DNA of 9,030 nucleotides from the IMG/VR virus record IMGVR_UViG_2667527898_000028, one strand, 5' to 3'. Position numbers and translations under genes: made by a program. Origin of the DNA: a virus (taxonomy: Duplodnaviria > Heunggongvirae > Uroviricota > Caudoviricetes). This document shows positions 1 to 9,030 of this stretch, piece by piece; position 1 is the first letter of the stretch, and the number at the start of each line of letters is the position of its first letter. The notes under the pieces were generated by a model. That model saw nothing but the letters and a program-made list of their open reading frames with translations. It ran no database searches and had not been told where the DNA came from.

Positions 1-141
1 TTACTGCTTACACTGTAAGAACGCCGCAAACTCCGCTCCCCAGAAGCTCATCCGTATTTCACACAGCGAACCGTGTAGCATCCAGATGATGAGGATTACC
101 GTCACGCAGAACGTGATGGCCGTAAGCGATTTTTGCGACAT
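1..141 (-). CDS. Hok/Gef-family-like type I toxin, small membrane peptide (46 aa)
   Basis: Minus-strand ATG at 141..139 and TAA at 3..1 give MSQKSLTAITFCVTVILIIWMLHGSLCEIRMSFWGAEFAAFLQCKQ. This is a hydrophobic helix followed by SLCEIR and E-x-AAF, the layout I recognise from Hok/Gef/PndA toxins. GGAG sits about 8 nt upstream of the ATG. It is below the ORF-track size cutoff, and the window starts exactly on its stop codon. Family call is from motif memory, not a search. Confidence 0.5.
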   Translation of the reverse strand: MSQKSLTAITFCVTVILIIWMLHGSLCEIRMSFWGAEFAAFLQCKQ

Positions 142-202
142 AGCGCTTGCTCCTTTGTTGGAGAGGCGCTAACCTATCACTTGCTTAAGGTAGATATGTT
201 AG

Positions 203-238
203 GGCCTCGGTTAAACAGAAATGTTTTCCGGGGCCTTT
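203..238. other. Imperfect ~13-bp hairpin with GAAA loop, followed by TTT on the plus strand; candidate regulatory or terminator structure between ogr and the hok-like ORF
   Basis: GGCCTCGG-tt-AAACA-GAAA-TGTTT-t-CCGGGGCC: outer arms 203..210 / 228..235 (one G-U pair), inner arms 213..217 / 222..226. Followed by TTTCC on the plus strand. It lies in the 5' leader of the hok-like ORF, antisense to it. Confidence 0.3.
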
Positions 239-332
239 CCACATCTGGCCTTCGGGTATTCCCTCCGACCATCAGCCGAAAGGCACCCGCGCGTAATCTA
301 TCGCTTTTTTGTTACTCCGGCAATTCTGCCTG

Positions 333-593
333 TTAATTCTGAGGTAAAGGCAAACTCATCTGATTGTTTCCCCTGTGTGAAGCTGGCAGCTCATGCCACG
401 GGATACCTTCTGAAGAGTGAACGCCGGAGGTGTGTTTTGATGTGAATTTATGGAAAGCTTCCAGTGTTGAGAAGCATACGCCGCATTCCAGGTTGTTACA
501 CTGGTAATACTTTTGCCGCACGGTGTTTGAATCATTTTCAGGACGACTGGTGCGGATACGGGCAGATGCGCCACAAAGCGGACAACGGAACAT
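333..593 (-). CDS. ogr: Ogr/Delta-family zinc-finger late-gene transcription activator
   Basis: 86-aa ORF beginning MFRCPLCGASARIRTSR, with a C-x2-C ... C-x4-C cysteine arrangement (C4, C7, C32, C37) typical of P2 Ogr / 186 B / P4 Delta. AGGGAGG sits about 5 nt upstream of the ATG at 593. It lies immediately downstream of D on the same strand, as in P2. Confidence 0.8.
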   Translation of the reverse strand: MFRCPLCGASARIRTSRPENDSNTVRQKYYQCNNLECGVCFSTLEAFHKFTSKHTSGVHSSEGIPWHELPASHRGNNQMSLPLPQN

Positions 594-635
594 AGCGACC
601 TCCCTTAACGTGGTGCTGCTGCTATTCTAAGTTGC

Positions 636-1745
636 TCACTCTGTTTCTGCTATCCATTCCGAGATTTTTGCCTCAAGCTCAAGCTGCGTGGTAAAGCCGC
701 TGTTATCGATGGTGTGCTCGGCTTTTGCAATAATCCAGTCCTGATTATCAATCTCGCTTTTAAATCCTGTTACCGTGCCATGCATTTCGGGGTAGAGTTC
801 TGCACGACCACATGCCAGCGTGATGGAGAATGATGCGGCTCCGCGTTGTAGCTGCTGCCACTTTGCCGCCGCTGCGCGTCTTGCTGCCTGCTCGTTCTGA
901 TAAGTCTTGCGTAACACAAACACATTGCCTTCCGCGCCTTCCATATAATCACCTTCACGGCTGCTGCTTTTCTCCTTTTTGGGTTTTGGCGGTTTGCGGT
1001 GTTTCACGCTGACTTTTTTCTTTTTCCCGTAATTAAGATCAAGCCAGTAAGCGCGTACCCCCGTATACGCTTCGCGGTCAGCAATGCGGAACTGATGGCG
1101 ATCGCCACTGCTGCGCGTGATGGCGAACGATGGCAACGGCTGGCCCTGTGCGTTCACGCCACCGCCTGGCATAATGAATAACAGATTACCGCTTTTTACC
1201 GTGGTGATTGCGCCCAGCATTTCCGCCATGCGCGTAAGGAAGGACATGTCGCTTTCTTCGGTCTGGTCGGCGTGGTCGATTTCGATATCCATCAGCATTT
1301 CGCTGATTTGCGGTTTCAGACCATACCGATGAGCGATGGCGGATACCACACGCTCAACGGTCACATCATGCCAGGACACCTCACGTTTAACGTTAAATTC
1401 ATCCCGAAAATCTGCGCTTCTGGCTGAAACAGTCAGCCTGTCCGGCGGTCCTTCGTGAGCGATTTCATCAACAATGTAAGTGCCTTTTTCTGTCAGCGGT
1501 TCTCCTTTCCAGCCAATGAGAACCGTCAGGCGCGCGCCCCGTGGCGGTAGCTGCAACTGACCATCCGCATCATCCAGCGTGATGGTGAGCTGGTCCGCGT
1601 CAAATCCCCGGTTGTCGGTCAGTGACAGGCTCATCAGGCGCTCTGCCACGCCTGACAGCGTTTTACCCTCCGCGAGAATATCAAAATCCGGCATTTTCAC
1701 GGGGTCTGTGCCCTGACTGAGCAATTGCATGGTGGTATCGGTCAT
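636..1745 (-). CDS. D: P2 gpD-like tail protein (late control gene D family)
   Basis: ORF-track frame 636..1877. The likely true start is the internal Met (MTDTTMQLLSQG...) at about 1745, preceded by GGGAGG; the next Met at 1730 is an alternative. About 369 aa, close to P2 gpD size. Family recognised from overall sequence character and from its position beside ogr. A lysine-rich segment lies at about 960..1030. Confidence 0.85.
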   Translation of the reverse strand: MTDTTMQLLSQGTDPVKMPDFDILAEGKTLSGVAERLMSLSLTDNRGFDADQLTITLDDADGQLQLPPRGARLTVLIGWKGEPLTEKGTYIVDEIAHEGPPDRLTVSARSADFRDEFNVKREVSWHDVTVERVVSAIAHRYGLKPQISEMLMDIEIDHADQTEESDMSFLTRMAEMLGAITTVKSGNLLFIMPGGGVNAQGQPLPSFAITRSSGDRHQFRIADREAYTGVRAYWLDLNYGKKKKVSVKHRKPPKPKKEKSSSREGDYMEGAEGNVFVLRKTYQNEQAARRAAAAKWQQLQRGAASFSITLACGRAELYPEMHGTVTGFKSEIDNQDWIIAKAEHTIDNSGFTTQLELEAKISEWIAETE

Positions 1746-1902
1746 CTGTTCCCTCCCTGTGCGGCATGGTCGCATGTGCGTGCGGAGGGGGTTACTGCTT
1801 TTTGTTGTCGCCGGGTCGGGAGAACGGCGCAGGGGTGAGATTACGCGCGTGGTGGGTGATGATTGTTGCCGAATCATTTAACGGATACAAGGGGCTAAAG
1901 CT
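1746..1902. promoter_or_regulatory. Divergent intergenic region between D (minus) and FI (plus); presumed site of the late promoter for the FI operon
   Basis: 157-nt gap between divergent start codons. I could not find a convincing TGT-N12-ACA Ogr-box or a clear -10 by eye, so this is positional inference only. Confidence 0.3.
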
Positions 1903-3087
1903 ATGAGTGAAACTCGTTTTCATGGTGCCCGTGTTACGGAAAGTACCGACCTGGTAACAGCGATTAACGATGTTGATTCCAGCGTTATCGGTATCGTGGC
2001 AACGGCGGATGATGCGGACGCGAAGCTGTTCCCGCTGAACAAGCCCACACTGCTGACCCGCGTCAATGACGTGCTGGGAAAATGCGGGACAACGGGGACG
2101 CTTTATCGTGCGCTTAAGGCCATCGCAGACCAGGTGAGCACAAAGGTGATCGTCGTTCGCGTGGCTGAACACAAAGAAGAAAACGGAAAGACGCAGGATC
2201 AACTGGTTATCGGTGGTTCTGAATCTGACGGCAGCTATACGGGGATGTATGCGCTGCTTGTTGCAGAGCAGGATGAAAGCATCGGATACCGTCCGCGTAT
2301 TCTGGCCGCGCCGGAGCTGGACACGGAGGCGGTGACAAAATCCCTGTGCGTGATTGCGGGTAAACTGCGCGCGTTTGTGTATGCCACATGTCATGGTTGT
2401 AACACGATGGCTGAGGCGATTACCTACCGCCAGAAATTCAACGAACGTGAGGTGATGCTCTTATGGCCGGACTTCATCGCCTACAACCCGAAAAGTGGCA
2501 AAAACGAAACGTTCCCCGCGCCTGCTTATGCGTGCGGCCTTCGTGCGTACATTGACCATGAGCAGGGCTGGCACAAATCGCTGTCCAACGTTCCGGTTAA
2601 AAATGTGCTGGGGATGTCGAGGCATGTGTTCTGGTCGTTACAGGCCGAAGACAGTGATGCCAACAGCCTCAACAACAAAGAAATCACGACCATTATTCGT
2701 CGTAACGGGTTCCGCTTCTGGGGCAACCGCACACCGGAAACGAACGCCTACATCTTTGAGGTGTATACCCGAACCGCACAGGTGCTGGCTGATTCAATTG
2801 CGGAAGCGCAGTTTGAAACCATCGACAGTCCACTGACACCTGCGAACGTGAAGGATGTTATCAGCGCCATCAGAGCAAAACTGGATTCGCTGGTTACTGT
2901 CGGGAAACTGATTGGTGCGGAGTGCTGGTATGACGTGGTGGATAACAGCACCACGGGTTTACGTCAGGGGCGTGTGCGTATTCGCTACAAATATACGCCC
3001 GTTCCTCCGCTGGAAGACATGGAGCTTTACCAGTCGTTTACTGATGAATTCTTTGGTCCCGCATTTGCGGTGCTGGGAGGTGCCTGA
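1903..3087 (+). CDS. FI: Contractile tail sheath protein (P2 gpFI-like)
   Basis: 394 aa. Motifs remembered from P2 FI: GSYTGMYAL, KLRAFVYA, YRQKFNEREVMLLWPDF, DHEQGWHKSLSNV, RRNGFRFWGNRT, YTRTAQVLAD, YTPVPPLE. AAGGGG sits 8 nt upstream of the ATG. Confidence 0.92.
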   Translation: MSETRFHGARVTESTDLVTAINDVDSSVIGIVATADDADAKLFPLNKPTLLTRVNDVLGKCGTTGTLYRALKAIADQVSTKVIVVRVAEHKEENGKTQDQLVIGGSESDGSYTGMYALLVAEQDESIGYRPRILAAPELDTEAVTKSLCVIAGKLRAFVYATCHGCNTMAEAITYRQKFNEREVMLLWPDFIAYNPKSGKNETFPAPAYACGLRAYIDHEQGWHKSLSNVPVKNVLGMSRHVFWSLQAEDSDANSLNNKEITTIIRRNGFRFWGNRTPETNAYIFEVYTRTAQVLADSIAEAQFETIDSPLTPANVKDVISAIRAKLDSLVTVGKLIGAECWYDVVDNSTTGLRQGRVRIRYKYTPVPPLEDMELYQSFTDEFFGPAFAVLGGA

Positions 3088-3599
3088 TGGCTGTACCAAA
3101 ACATCTTCGCTTTTTTACGTTGTTTGTGGATGGTGAAAACGAAGTGGGTAAAGTGACATCCGTCACGCCACCCAAACTGACGCGCAAAACCGACAGCTAT
3201 CGTGGTGGTGGCATGATGGGGGCGGTAAGTATTGATCTCGGTCTGGACGACTCCGCGCTTGATGCGAGTTTTGTCATGGGGGGAGCTGTTCGTGCGCTGT
3301 TCCTTAAATATGGCGGCACGATTGACGGCACGCTGCTGCGTTTTGCGGGTGAATACTACACCGATGCAGAAAGCGATCTGTATGAAATCGAGATGCGCGG
3401 GCGTCTGACGGAAATTGATATGGGGGAAGCCAAACAGGGCGAAGCCACATCACACACTTACGCTGTCAAAAACACCTACTACAAGCTGATCGTTAACGAT
3501 CGCCCGCTGTGGGAAATCGACCTGTTGAACCACATCTACCGGAAGGACGGCAAGGACATTGTGCCTGACCGTATCCGTTCCGCGCTTGGGCTTGGCTGA
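3087..3599 (+). CDS. FII: Tail tube protein (P2 gpFII-like)
   Basis: 170 aa, beginning MAVPKHLRFF ... PKLTRK ... YRGGGMMGA ... DLGLDD ... RFAG. The start overlaps the FI stop (TGATG) and has a GGGAGG SD, indicating translational coupling. Confidence 0.92.
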   Translation: MAVPKHLRFFTLFVDGENEVGKVTSVTPPKLTRKTDSYRGGGMMGAVSIDLGLDDSALDASFVMGGAVRALFLKYGGTIDGTLLRFAGEYYTDAESDLYEIEMRGRLTEIDMGEAKQGEATSHTYAVKNTYYKLIVNDRPLWEIDLLNHIYRKDGKDIVPDRIRSALGLG

Positions 3600-3612
3600 T
3601 AAGTAATATGCA

Positions 3613-3634
3613 GGCGGCGCAGTGCGTCGCCTTT
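3613..3634 (+). terminator. GC-rich hairpin plus short T-run between FII and E; candidate partial terminator or attenuator
   Basis: GGCGGCGC-AGT-GCGTCGCC (8-bp stem with one G-U pair, 3-nt loop) followed by TTT, then AAGGAG and the E start codon. Confidence 0.3.
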
Positions 3635-3654
3635 GACTGAAAAGGAGACAACTG

Positions 3655-4029
3655 ATGAAAGACATCGATACTGAAACCCGGAATAACACCGTGGCGGATG
3701 ATGTGACGGCAGGTGAGGATATGGCTGTCGAACGTGGCGTAAAACTGACCCGACCAATTGAGCGTGGTGGCGAAAAAATCACGTATGTGGAGATCACCGG
3801 GGCTATTGAGCAGGCTGGATCCCTGCGTGGTCTGTCGCTGTCTGATGTGCTGAATCTGAAAGCGGATACCATGTTTACGCTGTTGCCTCGCGTGACCTCG
3901 CCACGACTGGATGAAGTGATGATTAAAAAAATGTCGTCACGCGATTTTATTCAGTTGTGCGCAGTGGCTGTAAATTTTATGAGCGAGCCAGACTCTGGCG
4001 CGAAGAGCGTGCAGGAGACGGCAGCGTAA
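3655..4029 (+). CDS. E: Tail assembly chaperone (P2 gpE-like)
   Basis: 124-aa ORF directly after FII, with GGAG 7 nt upstream. Position, size and the overlapping -1 frame ORF match the P2 E/E' arrangement. Confidence 0.8.
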   Translation: MKDIDTETRNNTVADDVTAGEDMAVERGVKLTRPIERGGEKITYVEITGAIEQAGSLRGLSLSDVLNLKADTMFTLLPRVTSPRLDEVMIKKMSSRDFIQLCAVAVNFMSEPDSGAKSVQETAA

Positions 4030-4193
4030 TCACCCTGGTGTGCTTTGAGCACATCGAAGATCTGGTGGCGGATATTGCCGCCATTTTTAACTGGTCGCCC
4101 GCCGAAATCTTCATGATGACGCCCGGCGAAGTGGTTAGCTGGCGCGAGCGGGCGGCACTTCGCAGCGGGAATGCAGATAATGAAGACTCTTGA
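3655..4193 (+). CDS. E': E+E' fusion product made by programmed -1 ribosomal frameshifting (predicted)
   Basis: The -1 frame is open from 3927 to the stop at 4191..4193 and overlaps the 3' end of E. The slippery heptamer A_AAT_TTT (3972..3978) is in the correct phase. Predicted fusion is about 179 aa, ending ...NWSPAEIFMMTPGEVVSWRERAALRSGNADNEDS. Confidence 0.55.
3972..3978 (+). other. Candidate -1 frameshift slippery heptamer AAATTTT, with a downstream hairpin
   Basis: Zero-frame codons are GTA AAT TTT ATG, so the heptamer is X_XXY_YYZ in phase. A hairpin GCCAG-ACT-CTGGC (3987..3999), extendable with flanking GCG, starts 5-9 nt downstream. Confidence 0.5.
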
Positions 4194-6987
4194 TATCCGG
4201 GTCGCTTTCAGCGCCGTTGACAGGCTGACCCGGCCTGCCGAAAACGCCCGCCGCCTGATGGGGCAGTTTGGTGACTCCATCCAGCGAACGCAGGGGGCGA
4301 TCAAAAATCTCGAGCGTCAGGCGCGTTCATTTGAGCGCGCCCGTGACGCTGTCAGTAAAGCGGATGCTGGCATCGTGAAAGCACGACGCCAGCTTAACGC
4401 CCTTAATCAGTTACAACGCACGGGTACAGTGCTCAGCGAAAAACAACAAAAGCTGATGCAGCAGTTAAGCACCCGGCTTGAACGCCTGAATGAATCGCGC
4501 ACACGGGAAATTCAGAAAATGCGGGAGCTTGGCGGAGAGCTGAAACGCCACGGCATTTCCCTGACAGGCAGCGATAACACCATCCAGCAGGCCATCAGAC
4601 GCACCGAACAGTACAACAACCAGCTTGAACGCGAACGGCAGGCGCTTGCGCGTGTAACGCGGGCGCGTGAGCGGTATTCGCGCGCGCAGGAAACCGCGGG
4701 AAAACTGAAAACAGGTGGTGCGCTGGCAATTGGTGCTGCAGCGGCTGGCGGCTATGCTGCCGGGCGTTTTTTGCAGCCTGCGATCGGGTTCGGCAAAGAG
4801 ATGTCCCGCGTTCAGGCACTGACGCGAATCGACAAAAACAGCCCGCAGTTTAAGGCGCTGCGTGAGCAGGCGTTAAAACTTGGTTCTGAAACACAGTTTA
4901 CTGCGAGTGATGCCGCCAGTGGGCAGAGCTTTCTGGCAATGGCTGGTTTTACTCCGCAGGCCATTCAGGCCGCATTGCCCGGTGTTCTTAATATGGCGCT
5001 GGCAGGTGGCGTCGAACTCGGCGAGACGGCTGATATAGGCTCCAATATCCTCACACAGTTCAACCTGACAGCCGATCAAATGGACCGGGTTGGCGATACG
5101 CTGACAGCAGCATTCACCCGGACCAATACTGATTTACGCGCGCTGGGCGAAACCATGAAGTATACCGGTCCGGTTGCCGCAAAACTTGGTATCAGTCTTG
5201 AAGAAGCGGCGGCCATGGCCGGGATGCTTGCCAATAATGGTCTTCGCGGAAGCGATGCTGGTACGGCCATGCGCGCAAGTCTGTCCCGCCTTGCATCACC
5301 GCCAAAAGCTGCGGCTGATGCACTGAAAGAGCTGGGGGTGTCAGTTGCTGACGCCAGAGGCAAAATGCGCCCGATGGAGGATGTGCTGCTTGATCTCTAT
5401 AAGGCGACACAAAAATACGGACAGGTGGACCAGGTCTCCTTCTTCAAGGACATCGCCGGAGAAGAGGCGTTCGTTGGTTTGCAGACGCTTGTTGCGGCGG
5501 CTGGTTCAGGAGAACTGCAAAAACTGACCAGAGAATTGCAGGGGGCAAGGGGAGAGGCCGATCGCGTTGCAAAAGTAATGGCCGATAATCTTGATGGAGA
5601 CCTGAAAAATCTCGACAGCGCATGGGAAGGTCTTCGTATTCGCATCAGTGATCTGGTTGACGGTCCGCTGCGTTCTGTCACGCAGTGGCTCACGCGGGTG
5701 CTTGAAAAAATCACCTCGCTGGCGCAGGCCCATCCGGTACTGACGCGCCAGCTACTGATAGCAGGCGGTGCGTTGCTGGCAATGACTGCAACGATTGGCT
5801 CGTTGTCGCTGGTTATTGGGGTGCTTTACGGGAAGCTGGCCACCTTGCGTCTTGGTTTCGACATTCTTACCCGGTCAATGAATGTCATCAGGGTGTTGCC
5901 TGCGCTGTGGGGAATGGTGACGGGTTCTGTTTCTTTGCTGGGTGGTGCTATCGGGGCGCTGTTCAGTCCGGTTGGTCTTATCGTGGCTGCGCTTGCCGGA
6001 GCTGCCGTTCTTATCTGGAAATACTGGGATCCCATCAGGGCATTTTTTGCCGGGGTGTTCAGCGGGATTATGGAAAGGCTGACCCCGTTGCGTGAAACCT
6101 TTGAACGGTTTGGCCCTGTTTTTGACGCAATCGGAAGCGGGATCAGCCTGGTGTTTAACTGGTTTAAATCGCTGTTGTCACCGATGGAGTCCAGCAAGGA
6201 AACGCTGGATAAATGCACCAGTGCTGGCGAGATATTCGGTAACGTTCTTGGCGGTGCGTTACAACTTGTTCTGACGCCTGCAAAAATGCTACTGGATACG
6301 CTGGCGTGGATACTTGAAAAACTTGGCGTCCTTCCGGATGAAGCGGAAAGGGCGCGCAAGAAAATCGAAGACGCACAGCGTGCGGCCATTCTTCAGGACA
6401 AGGTTGCCTTGCTTCAGGGGGACCTGGCGAAAATCAATCCGCCGAAGCCTGTGGAAAATGGCAATGGCACCGGAGGTGATAAACCCAAAGACAACAAACC
6501 GCTCACAGACAGCAATACCGGTACGCTACGCAGACTCAGCAAAATTGCTGATAACACAGGTAAGCTGGTTGATGAGACGAAAAAACGCATTGGCCCCGGC
6601 GATATTGTCTTTAAGAATCTGCCCCGCGCACTTGCTGTTCGTGGGGAGTGGCAGGAGCGGAAGATTGCGCAGGTCAGTAAGCCTGCTTCCGCAATCAACA
6701 TCACACCCGTGGTCCCGACTCCTCTGCCTCTGGCGCTGGTCCCTGTTGTTGCGGCCAGCTCCCGCCCGGTGGCGGAGGCCATACGATCGCCAGTGGCATC
6801 AGTTCCTGCAACTTCCCGTAACCGGGAGCCTGTTGTCTCCGGATTTGGCGGTGAAATTCATGTTCATCTGCATAACGTTGTTACGCAGAATCCCCGCGAA
6901 CTGGCGAAACTGGTCGGTGAAATGGTCAGGGCAGAATTGGAACGACGCGACCGTGCCGGACGTGGCAGTTTTTACGATAAAGATTGA
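4171..6987 (+). CDS. T: Tail tape measure protein (P2 gpT-like)
   Basis: 938 aa. N-terminal charged and predicted coiled-coil region, central tape-measure core (AMAGFTPQAIQAALPGVLNMALAGG ... MKYTGPVAAKLGISLEEAAAMAGMLANNGLRGSDAGTAMRASLSRL), hydrophobic helices at about aa 520-620, and a Pro/Lys-rich C-terminus. An alternative start is ATG 4180. The start overlaps the end of the E' frame. Confidence 0.9.
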   Translation: MQIMKTLDIRVAFSAVDRLTRPAENARRLMGQFGDSIQRTQGAIKNLERQARSFERARDAVSKADAGIVKARRQLNALNQLQRTGTVLSEKQQKLMQQLSTRLERLNESRTREIQKMRELGGELKRHGISLTGSDNTIQQAIRRTEQYNNQLERERQALARVTRARERYSRAQETAGKLKTGGALAIGAAAAGGYAAGRFLQPAIGFGKEMSRVQALTRIDKNSPQFKALREQALKLGSETQFTASDAASGQSFLAMAGFTPQAIQAALPGVLNMALAGGVELGETADIGSNILTQFNLTADQMDRVGDTLTAAFTRTNTDLRALGETMKYTGPVAAKLGISLEEAAAMAGMLANNGLRGSDAGTAMRASLSRLASPPKAAADALKELGVSVADARGKMRPMEDVLLDLYKATQKYGQVDQVSFFKDIAGEEAFVGLQTLVAAAGSGELQKLTRELQGARGEADRVAKVMADNLDGDLKNLDSAWEGLRIRISDLVDGPLRSVTQWLTRVLEKITSLAQAHPVLTRQLLIAGGALLAMTATIGSLSLVIGVLYGKLATLRLGFDILTRSMNVIRVLPALWGMVTGSVSLLGGAIGALFSPVGLIVAALAGAAVLIWKYWDPIRAFFAGVFSGIMERLTPLRETFERFGPVFDAIGSGISLVFNWFKSLLSPMESSKETLDKCTSAGEIFGNVLGGALQLVLTPAKMLLDTLAWILEKLGVLPDEAERARKKIEDAQRAAILQDKVALLQGDLAKINPPKPVENGNGTGGDKPKDNKPLTDSNTGTLRRLSKIADNTGKLVDETKKRIGPGDIVFKNLPRALAVRGEWQERKIAQVSKPASAINITPVVPTPLPLALVPVVAASSRPVAEAIRSPVASVPATSRNREPVVSGFGGEIHVHLHNVVTQNPRELAKLVGEMVRAELERRDRAGRGSFYDKD

Positions 6988-6999
6988 GGAGTCATGGCC

Positions 7000-7488
7000 A
7001 TGATGATGATCTACGGCATGTTTGTTTTTGAGCTGCGCACATTGCCGCATCAGCAGTTACAGCAAAACAAAAGCTGGCGGTATGTGAAAAATGAACGCGT
7101 TAACCGTTCAGCAAGCTGGCAGTATATCGGCGCAGGTGATGATCGCATCGTGCTTTCCGGCGTGCTTTATCCTGAAATTACAGGTGGCGAAGTGTCGCTT
7201 TCATTGCTGACCACGCAGGCATATACAGGACGGCCCTGGCCTCTGATTGATGGTGTCGGGCAGATTTACGGCATGTATGTACTGACTGAAACGAATACGA
7301 CCCGTTCCGAGTTTGATCGCTACGGTAAGGCGAAAAAGATAGAATTTTCACTGACTCTTGAACGCTGTGATGAGGATTTGCGGGAGCGCCTGCAATCCTC
7401 ATCGTTCAGCGATATGTTGTCCGGCTTCAAAGATAAGGTGACATCATCCCTTAATAGCGCGGCCAGCTCAGTTAAGGGGCTGCTCTGA
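7000..7488 (+). CDS. U: Tail protein gpU-like
   Basis: ORF-track frame 6994..7488. GGAG at 6988..6991 is too close to ATG 6994 but about 8 nt from ATG 7000 (MMMIYGMFVFEL...). Size and position after T match P2 gpU. Confidence 0.85.
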   Translation: MMMIYGMFVFELRTLPHQQLQQNKSWRYVKNERVNRSASWQYIGAGDDRIVLSGVLYPEITGGEVSLSLLTTQAYTGRPWPLIDGVGQIYGMYVLTETNTTRSEFDRYGKAKKIEFSLTLERCDEDLRERLQSSSFSDMLSGFKDKVTSSLNSAASSVKGLL

Positions 7489-7564
7489 TTTAACGTATGT
7501 CGCCAATTTCCTGATGAAGGTGACTGGCGACTTGCTGTTGTATGTCCTTCTCAGAAAATTGTTT

Positions 7565-7593
7565 TTGAATAATAAACAACAGGATTTTATAAT
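7565..7593 (+). promoter_or_regulatory. Near-consensus sigma70 promoter for the acetyltransferase cargo gene
   Basis: TTGAAT (7565..7570), 17-nt spacer, TATAAT (7588..7593), in an AT-rich context about 50 nt upstream of the RBS. Confidence 0.45.
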
Positions 7594-7644
7594 CTCTTAA
7601 CCTTATAACATGTGTGGTCTGAAATAATAATTAAGGAGATTATC

Positions 7645-8217
7645 GTGCTGTCTTACCTAATGGCAATTCACTTTGTTTTATTTGGGAACTCTACTAATTT
7701 AAAAAACTTCTGGAAACATGAAGTAATTCGGCGGAAACGTATGGATATCTGGAGGCTTTTAAGAGAGAAAAAGCAGCGTAACAGGAATTTCCTTTTCTGG
7801 TGGCGGTTGGCTAACGAAATGTATATTAATGGTAATAAATTACATAAGAAAGCTGCTAAAAAGTTAAACAATAAAATAATTAACAATTTTGGTTGCGAGA
7901 TTGGACTGGGCGCAAAAATTGGAAAAGGGCTAACAATTCCCCATCACGCTGGAATTGTTGTTCATTTTGCTGTTGATGCTGGTGAAAATCTGGTGTTACG
8001 ACAGAATACTACTATTGGACAGATAGATGGTGACATACCTGGTTCAAGAGTAAAAATTGGTAGTAACGTTGATATCGGAGCTAATTGTTGCATCATTGGA
8101 TTATCTCGTAAAATTGGGGATAATGTAAAAATAGGCGCAATGTCTTTTATAAATAAAGATATACCATCGAACTGCACATATATAACTAAAAAGAACGGTG
8201 TTGTTTTGTATAAATAG
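7645..8217 (+). CDS. Hexapeptide-repeat (left-handed beta-helix) O-acetyltransferase, WcaB / serine-acetyltransferase-like
   Basis: The ORF-track frame starts at GTG 7612. GTG 7645 is preferred because AAGGAG sits 6 nt upstream; ATG 7660 is an alternative. The C-terminal half carries imperfect hexapeptide repeats (GAKIGKGLTIPHHAGIVV, TTIGQIDGDIPGSRVKIGSNVDIGANCCIIG, IGDNVKIGAMSFI) after a basic helical N-terminal part, as in WcaB/CysE-type acetyltransferases. Codon usage is strongly AT-rich compared with the tail genes. Confidence 0.85.
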   Translation: MLSYLMAIHFVLFGNSTNLKNFWKHEVIRRKRMDIWRLLREKKQRNRNFLFWWRLANEMYINGNKLHKKAAKKLNNKIINNFGCEIGLGAKIGKGLTIPHHAGIVVHFAVDAGENLVLRQNTTIGQIDGDIPGSRVKIGSNVDIGANCCIIGLSRKIGDNVKIGAMSFINKDIPSNCTYITKKNGVVLYK

Positions 8218-8227
8218 AGCACATAAA

Positions 8228-8262
8228 GCCATCGATATTTCTATCGATGGCTTTTTCTTTTT
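8228..8262. terminator. Rho-independent terminator between convergent genes, probably bidirectional
   Basis: Perfect 10-bp stem GCCATCGATA / TATCGATGGC with TTTC loop, followed by TTTTTCTTTTT on the plus strand. It sits between the acetyltransferase stop (8217) and the tfa stop (8261..8263). Confidence 0.75.
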
Positions 8263-8754
8263 ATTGTGGGGCGACTGGCCACTCAATATCTGCTGCTACT
8301 GTTGTATCAACACGATGCAACAATACTCGATATGTCTTCCATGCAGCCAGTAACGATGTCTCTTCCTCCGTCGCAATATCTAAATCTATAGCATCCTGAA
8401 GTGGTGCAATATGCTCACTGGCTACCTGCATCAGGCTGTTTTTTGTTTCTTCCGCCTCCCTTATCCGAAATAGTTTTTCTGCTTCTGCATCTTTCACCCA
8501 GGATGTGCCGTTCCACTTCTGATACTCTCCATACGGCGACAACCAGGTAACATTTTCCGGTAACGGACCGAGTTCAGAAATAAATAACGAGTCCCCTGAT
8601 GCCACGTCATAAACCGTTTTACCCCGATGGTCTTCAACGAGATGCCACGATGCCTCATCACTGTTGAAAACAACCACGAAGCCAGCCGGAATATCTGGGC
8701 AATATCAGTACTGTTTGCAGGCAAACCTGTATGAAGTGGAATGGCACAAGAGAC
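8261..8754 (-). pseudogene. Tail fibre assembly protein (Tfa/gpG family), frameshifted and 5'-truncated
   Basis: The C-terminal part (ORF 8261..8677) ends ...[26 protein letters not shown], the conserved Tfa C-terminus. Upstream, the homology continues in another frame (ORF 8494..8724, ...[12 protein letters not shown]) and switches frame at about 8696..8700, in a C-run, to ...[18 protein letters not shown]. The open frame ends at a stop at 8755..8757, so the usual N-terminal 30-40 aa are absent. Confidence 0.7.
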
Positions 8755-9030
8755 TTACAAAAGAATCAGGCAAAACGCCTGATTGATGAGAGCCCCGAAC
8801 TACTGAAATCTGTCGTCAAATTTGCGCTGGTAACTGTTCTGAGAAAGTCGAACATCATAAATCTGGAGTGGCAACAGATTGACATGCAGCGACAAGTTGC
8901 CAGGGTGAATCCAGAAGATAGCAAATCAAACCGCGCCATTGGTGTGGCGCTGAACGATACCGCCTCTAAAGTGTTGCGTGATCAAACAGGCAAGCATCAC
9001 AAATGTGGGTGTACATACCAGGGCGGCTAA
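8731..9030 (+). pseudogene. Tyrosine-integrase fragment (start of the catalytic domain only)
   Basis: 99-aa ORF containing [47 protein letters not shown], the Arg-box / L-x-W-x-x-I-D region at the start of phage integrase catalytic domains. It lacks the N-terminal DNA-binding part and the downstream H-x-x-R ... Y catalytic residues, and ends ...[12 protein letters not shown] at a stop at the window edge. Confidence 0.6.

Follow-up and report, generated by a model that had tools for sequence, protein, structure and literature searches.

Gene content of the window and of its contig

The window, that is, the whole stretch of 9,030 nucleotides analysed here, was identified by exact-protein look-up as the reverse complement of positions 7569–16598 of contig CCCF01000075.1 (assembly GCA_000941435.1), designated L003. 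On the basis of the ORF listing and of homology, it contains a P2-like tail gene block, followed by an acetyltransferase gene, a minus-strand tfa gene and a plus-strand integrase fragment.

The tail gene block comprises ogr (333–593, minus strand), gpD (to approximately 1745, minus strand), sheath (1903–3087), tube (3087–3599), gpE (3655–4029), tape measure (4180–6987), and gpU (6994–7488), all of them assigned from the ORF listing and homology. An ORF of 46 amino acids encoding a Hok/Gef-type toxin (1–141, minus strand) marks the end of the prophage and adjoins ogr; in E. coli 90-3040 an IS600 element is located between hok and ogr. The canonical P2 order places FI to U and D in one co-directional unit. 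In this prophage family, the sheath–tube–E–T–U block (window 636–7488; L001, L004, and L005) runs in the opposite direction to gpD/ogr and to tfa–H–I–J–W–V, and at least 1344 complete genomes show this arrangement across both boundaries of the block.

The hexapeptide-repeat acetyltransferase gene (7645–8217, plus strand) is likely a moron (prophage accessory gene), with a weak Hexapep match and a low G+C content, 0.34–0.37 against 0.49–0.50 for the adjacent genes. It is annotated as a serine acetyltransferase in 90-3040 and is the direct neighbour of tfa in the P2-like prophage. A promoter-like site (7565–7593) precedes it, and a strong terminator-like hairpin of the P2-like arm (8225–8254, plus strand), with a stem of 13 pairs followed by a T-run, lies between it and the tfa stop codon; the gene looks like a self-contained moron between gpU and tfa (window 7565–8254).

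The gene order of the complete contig is purK...folD–argU–'int–'tfa/tfa–acetyltransferase–U–T–E–FII–FI–D–ogr–hok–leuZ–cysT–glyW. The colinear block from ogr through D, FI, FII, E, T, U, and the acetyltransferase gene to tfa is therefore present and flanked by hok and leuZ, and beyond ogr and hok the contig continues through leuZ–cysT–glyW into chromosomal DNA of the pgsA side. On the folD side, the 3' end of the integrase gene adjoins tRNA-Arg(UCU) argU.

The tfa and integrase remnants at argU

The tfa pseudogene (8261–8743, minus strand) is truncated at its 5' end, frameshifted, and a hybrid of two tfa copies, as determined from its homology to intact tfa and from its match to PF02413. Homology to the intact 192-aa gene of E. 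coli 90-3040 (L001 6762–7340) extends from the stop codon (8261–8263) to position 8743 and no further, so that the first 92 nt (30 2/3 codons) of that copy are missing. An in-frame stop codon was found upstream of the homology at 8755–8757, in agreement with the preliminary description of this locus, which had placed the loss of the N-terminus at a stop near 8755. That description had also reported a frameshift of the one-nucleotide type near 8698 in a C-run; its position and its effect on the frame were confirmed, but its size was not, as the change is a 4-bp deletion between 8697 and 8698 that converts the intact sense sequence GCCCCGCCAG into GCCCAG. The deletion sits in the run GCCCCGCC, and its effect on the frame is that of a 1-nt deletion.

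The longest ORF left in the pseudogene (8261–8677) encodes 138 amino acids and matches PF02413 (Caudo_TAP) over positions 1–131 of 131 (E = 4e-41). The domain is complete because the 3' part of this tfa is of the P2-like type, the native scar having a 117-bp deletion there. The N-terminal domain Caudo_TAP_N (PF28596), which is present in the intact 192-aa Tfa homologues, and the native start codon are missing from the window copy, with 92 nt gone and the 4-bp frameshift. The cognate tail fibre gene is not directly upstream, where the integrase remnant is found instead. BLAST E-values of the matches in the region range from 0 to 1e-159, far beyond chance.

A match to the Rfam family IS009 (RF02111; 177 bits, above the gathering score) was obtained at 8298–8496 on the minus strand, wholly inside the tfa coding sequence; this "RNA family" match probably reflects merely the conserved tfa DNA.

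Additionally, four independent events end within approximately 50 bp of the tfa 5' region (window 8693–8743; in the sense direction GATATT-GCCCCGCCA-GATATT and nearby). They are the aaaD/tfaD joint of K-12 (approximately 8693), the 4-bp deletion (8697/8698), the joint of a deleted P2-like prophage (approximately 8705; L020–L025), and the argU scar joint (8743). This clustering could come from a hot spot for deletions, or from selection that preserves the downstream content.

The integrase remnant (8744–9030, plus strand) corresponds to the first half of the catalytic domain, with 92% nucleotide identity to K-12 intD and a match to PF00589. Its DNA begins at 8744, equivalent to residue 182/183 of the 387-aa IntD of K-12, a tyrosine recombinase. 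The ORF of 99 amino acids that contains it (8731–9030, plus strand) is fortuitous: its ATG and four further codons are read from antisense tfa and run in frame into the integrase fragment. An integrase ORF starting at 8731 and overlapping tfa had been described previously, and it does match PF00589 (positions 3–86 of 172, E = 2.7e-15, 57 bits against a cut-off of 27.1). Its stop codon (9028–9030) was created by a 2-bp deletion at approximately 9010/9011.

The same ORF had been regarded as an internal fragment lacking both ends. The N-terminal part is indeed deleted, but the catalytic C-terminal half is not: the homology to K-12 intD (92%) runs for approximately 318 bp past the window end, up to argU, and its stop codon is 17 bp before tRNA-Arg(tct) argU (on L003 the tRNA gene occupies 7157–7233 and the integrase homology ends at 7251). 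The arm-binding and core-binding domains of the N-terminus are absent, and the PF00589 domain begins at IntD residue 184. Beyond the 2-bp deletion, there is an 11-bp deletion near the integrase 3' end, and the Arg of the HxxR motif is replaced by Trp on the source contig (HDLRH to HDLWH). The catalytic set (Arg I, Lys, His-x-x-Arg, His/Trp, and Tyr) is not in one frame, and the ORF holds only the Arg I box (LRKSN). Judged from its sequence, the whole catalytic domain is present as DNA but dead, the deleted part being the N-terminal 181–182 residues. The earlier expectation that the truncated integrase would be inactive is therefore upheld, since the N-terminal residues are gone, the frame is lost after Arg-box I and the HxxR Arg has become Trp. 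The exact 99-aa protein has been called on at least 24 contigs under the name "tyrosine-type recombinase/integrase". A full-length integrase allele closer than approximately 85% (phages) or 92% (K-12) was not found.

The deletion joint between tfa and int lies at 8743/8744 (aatg/gcac). The search for full-length relatives and breakpoints that had been proposed for the locus thus gave the intact 192-aa tfa of 90-3040, K-12 intD and this position, and the comparison with related strains proposed with it showed the same joint in SCU-124, in the ST131 strain 18044, and in D8. With a 131-bp probe centred on the joint, an identical sequence was detected in 1121 of the 5426 complete E. coli genomes searched, once per genome and including ST131, so that the scar is not peculiar to one strain. 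Its context in the three complete genomes opened (SCU-124, ST131, and D8) is ompT–methyltransferase–'tfa–'int–argU–folD. Window positions 8720–9030 are 99.7% identical to SCU-124, where the methyltransferase is of the SAM type and ybcY-like. This distal end (tfa–ybcY-like methyltransferase–ompT) is present in every sister contig reaching past the tfa remnant; it is absent from L003, where the P2-like arm takes its place. The scar genomes L002, L003, and L007 do not have the sfmACDHF–fimZ fimbrial cluster, which in K-12 is located between folD and argU.

The preliminary description was right in recognizing a deletion scar at this point, with the tail fibre gene and almost all other content lost. 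Its further suggestion that the tfa/int joint brings together remnants of two different elements is neither supported nor needed: a single lambdoid prophage of the DLP12 family, shortened by an internal deletion, is enough to explain the joint. The ends of the K-12 DLP12 prophage are intD (at argU) and tfaD–ybcY–ompT, in the same relative orientation, and lambdoid phages carry both gene families (Kati, Turner, PhiR26_1, PhiR30_1, and PhiR68_2). On this reading, a DLP12-family prophage at the tRNA-Arg gene argU lost its whole interior in one deletion, from integrase codon approximately 182 to tfa codon 31, which left the 3' half of int and the 3' part of tfa back to back, followed by the accessory genes for the ybcY-like methyltransferase and ompT. 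Both remnants decayed further afterwards: besides the joint, all the carriers examined have in common the loss of 117 bp from tfa and of 2 bp and 11 bp from the integrase gene, and additional tfa deletions of 1 bp and 4 bp mark the sub-lineage of scar carriers nearest to the source strain.

The scar resembles the DLP12 prophage of E. coli K-12 (argU–intD...tfaD–ybcY–tfaX–appY–ompT) in its attachment site, where argU is next to the 3' end of int, in its integrase family (92% nucleotide identity), in its tfa–methyltransferase–ompT end (96.8% nucleotide identity across ybcY and the 3' end of tfa), and in the orientation of int relative to tfa. K-12, in contrast, has a full intD and has kept an interior of approximately 16 kb, and its tfaD is truncated elsewhere, at the aaaD/tfaD joint equivalent to window position 8693 approximately. 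The scar lost the region from int codon approximately 182 to tfa codon 31 but keeps 50 nt of tfa that are gone in K-12; given these 50 nt and the different truncation point, it is a deletion derivative independent of K-12 DLP12. The presence of DLP12 at argU and its prevalence have been described (PMC6379469, citing Lindsey et al. 1989).

The scar of ST131 and other E. coli has the identical tfa/int joint and the same 2-bp and 11-bp integrase deletions, and PGAP annotates it as a pair of pseudogenes, one a "tail fiber assembly protein" and the other a "site-specific integrase". It differs from the window in its 117-bp tfa deletion and in the methyltransferase and ompT genes on its left, whereas the window has an undeleted tfa 3' part of the P2-like type and P2-like tail genes. 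The argU scar is real, old and ordinary, and without function.

Hybrid structure of the tfa pseudogene

A second junction was found inside tfa. The 3' two-thirds of the gene (8261–8590, minus strand) are of the P2-like prophage type, without the 117-bp and 1-bp deletions of the argU scar in the nearest relatives. The 5' remnant (8672–8743, minus strand) is, according to its diagnostic bases, of the argU (DLP12-family) scar type and carries the 4-bp deletion. Between them, 81 bp (8591–8671) are identical in both tfa copies, and the crossover or mis-join lies somewhere inside this zone. The preliminary description missed this junction, which does join two elements and is probably an artefact of assembly.

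The two halves were compared with sister assemblies of the same ENA series as the source assembly. Window positions 1–8671 show no mismatches to L029 (GCA_000936105.1), a normal P2-like prophage at leuZ with an intact tfa and, after it, the genes for the tail fibre and the baseplate. Positions 8591–9030 show no mismatches to L012, L013, and L015, normal scars with ompT and the methyltransferase gene; within 8476–8590, by contrast, the scar loci differ from the window by 19 mismatches. Bases 8672, 8673, 8707, 8724, and 8735 and the 4-bp gap match L012, L013, and L015 and not the P2-like copy. The switch therefore falls exactly in the longest identical stretch common to both tfa copies. The comparison of whole contigs showed approximately 8 kb on the argU side and approximately 10 kb on the leuZ side identical to sister contigs. 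These differing flanks of 8 kb and 10 kb exclude the gene conversion of a short patch. In complete genomes, the P2-like prophage at leuZ/yecA (for example, in 90-3040 and 55989) matches window positions 1–8671 at 97.6–98.9%, against 100% in L029, and the match takes in the acetyltransferase gene as well as the 3' part of tfa; it differs in having an intact tfa (192 aa), with the baseplate genes and the tail fibre gene H ahead of it.

On its left the window tfa adjoins P2-like tail genes and on its right the integrase, as would be expected if a single deletion in situ had fused the tfa of a P2-like tail cluster directly to the integrase fragment of another element. Such an event is extremely improbable: the joint, the adjacent 72 bp of tfa and the 4-bp deletion all recur unchanged in the widespread argU scar, which has no P2-like neighbours, and sequence of the P2-like type reaches no further than 8671, so that the diagnostic positions 8672–8735 contradict such a fusion. 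The insertion of a circular P2-like phage genome into the argU tfa remnant by homologous recombination of the Campbell type would produce the same local hybrid, but it has hardly any probability either, because past ogr and hok the contig enters chromosomal leuZ–cysT–glyW and pgsA-side DNA and not the attP–int region of a phage.

The hybrid ORF of 138 amino acids was found on one contig only among 153 billion indexed gene positions. A megablast search with window positions 7500–9030 gave no acetyltransferase–tfa arm joined to int in 5426 complete E. coli genomes, where the matches of approximately 98% all stop at 8743, and a hybrid-specific 96-mer was not found in the metagenome and GTDB-representative collections. 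Elsewhere, the exact 99-aa integrase ORF was located in the normal ompT–methyltransferase context or on contigs starting after it (9 of the 10 places listed; 24 contigs read). The exact tape-measure protein was accompanied by an intact 192-aa tfa and then the tail fibre gene in all nine contexts shown (24 contigs read).

Other Tfa proteins of 138 amino acids ("MAVF...", in the same 90% cluster) were considered as further hybrids and discarded, as they derive from an internally deleted P2-like prophage and have no junction to int. This deleted form is widespread at yecA/leuZ (L020–L025; for example, L020 5780–6120). Its early region (int...MarR-like gene) is fused to tfa codon 45 approximately, followed by the acetyltransferase gene, U, T, E, tube, and sheath, and it yields the "MAVF..." call on at least 25 contigs.

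The predicted reciprocal hybrid was built and then searched for, and it was found exactly on two ENA metagenome scaffolds only (2083 and 668 bp). These two scaffolds (ERZ28615459 and ERZ28635891) are L035 (1–2083) and L036 (1–668). In them, a 5' part of the P2-like type, with the 3' end of the tail fibre gene, is joined inside the same 81 bp to a 3' part of the scar type and the methyltransferase gene. A 114-aa protein (P0031) had been taken as the undeleted ancestor of the scar, and this was rejected when base-by-base comparison identified it as the reciprocal hybrid. The reciprocal joint is absent from the 5426 complete genomes. Where this could be checked, only one of the two hybrid joints was seen per assembly, the reciprocal 114-aa ORF coming from the metagenome scaffolds only and the window-type ORF from the source contig only. 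A true inversion would put both joints in the same genome.

Misassembly or chromosomal rearrangement

K-12 has argU at 0.565 Mb and leuZ at 1.992 Mb, a distance of 1.43 Mb, and their order and orientation agree with those on the contig. This makes the two tfa copies direct repeats and the contig joint one of the deletion type, which on a standard backbone implies that approximately 1.43 Mb were lost, the terminus and many essential genes among them. A loss of the terminus region and of many essential genes is lethal. We infer that the link between the argU scar and the P2-like tail genes is most likely a mis-join made by a short-read assembler at the 81-bp repeat, with no chromosomal event behind it. 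Within 8591–8671, the assembler would have switched from the tfa of the argU scar to the intact tfa of the P2-like prophage at leuZ/yecA. In a related run, the Logan contig ERR738833_181 (k = 31) starts at 8642, that is, 8672 minus 30, as expected where a second tfa copy makes the graph branch.

Several considerations count against this mis-join. An exact repeat of 81 bp is shorter than typical reads of 100–150 nt, and assemblers often get such a repeat right; tfa genes of different prophages do undergo homologous recombination, and commonly so; and a strain with a prior inversion could be viable with the joint. Moreover, three independent assemblies with hybrids at the same repeat could point to a truly recombinogenic site.

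The hybrid would be real if homologous recombination within the 81-bp identity, between the tfa of the argU scar and that of the P2-like prophage, had rearranged the chromosome. For this, the leuZ-side segment would have to have been transposed by a double crossover, or else an inversion would have to have occurred in a strain that already had one of the two loci inverted with respect to the other. The position of the switch, exactly in the longest shared identical stretch, is in line with this, as are the existence of the reciprocal joint in two other assemblies and the recombination of phage DNA with cryptic lambdoid prophages (Lichens-Park et al. 1990, as cited in PMC6379469). It is nevertheless unlikely, considering that a simple crossover between direct repeats 1.43 Mb apart on the standard backbone gives a lethal deletion, that the sister assemblies shown, with identical flanks, have the normal arrangement at both loci, that the only records of the reciprocal 114-aa ORF come from two ENA metagenome scaffolds and none from the source isolate, and that neither joint occurs in the 5426 complete genomes.

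Large inversions between homologous prophage regions have been reported in E. coli O157:H7. The substrate would be alike, namely homologous late-gene segments of two prophages, but those inversions involve inverted repeats and were seen in closed genomes, whereas the repeats considered here are direct and the joint is known from fragmented short-read assemblies only.

In its boldest form, the hypothesis of a real hybrid states that the dead argU scar and the resident P2-like prophage on the opposite replichore recombined over the 81 bp, rearranging the chromosome of the isolate, and in this form it is quite improbable. If it were true, the two reciprocal metagenome scaffolds would mean recurrence, and conserved tfa segments, long-dead scars included, would be active substrates for megabase-scale rearrangement.

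With the mis-join as the preferred explanation, the source contig probably mis-links argU to leuZ, and synteny or rearrangement calls from it, or from similar short-read assemblies with both tfa copies, are untrustworthy without a read check. The scar joint is already annotated as two pseudogenes in more than 1000 public genomes, and the 99-aa "integrase" and 138-aa "tail fibre assembly protein" calls are annotation noise. The region carries little biological weight and constitutes a textbook case of prophage decay.
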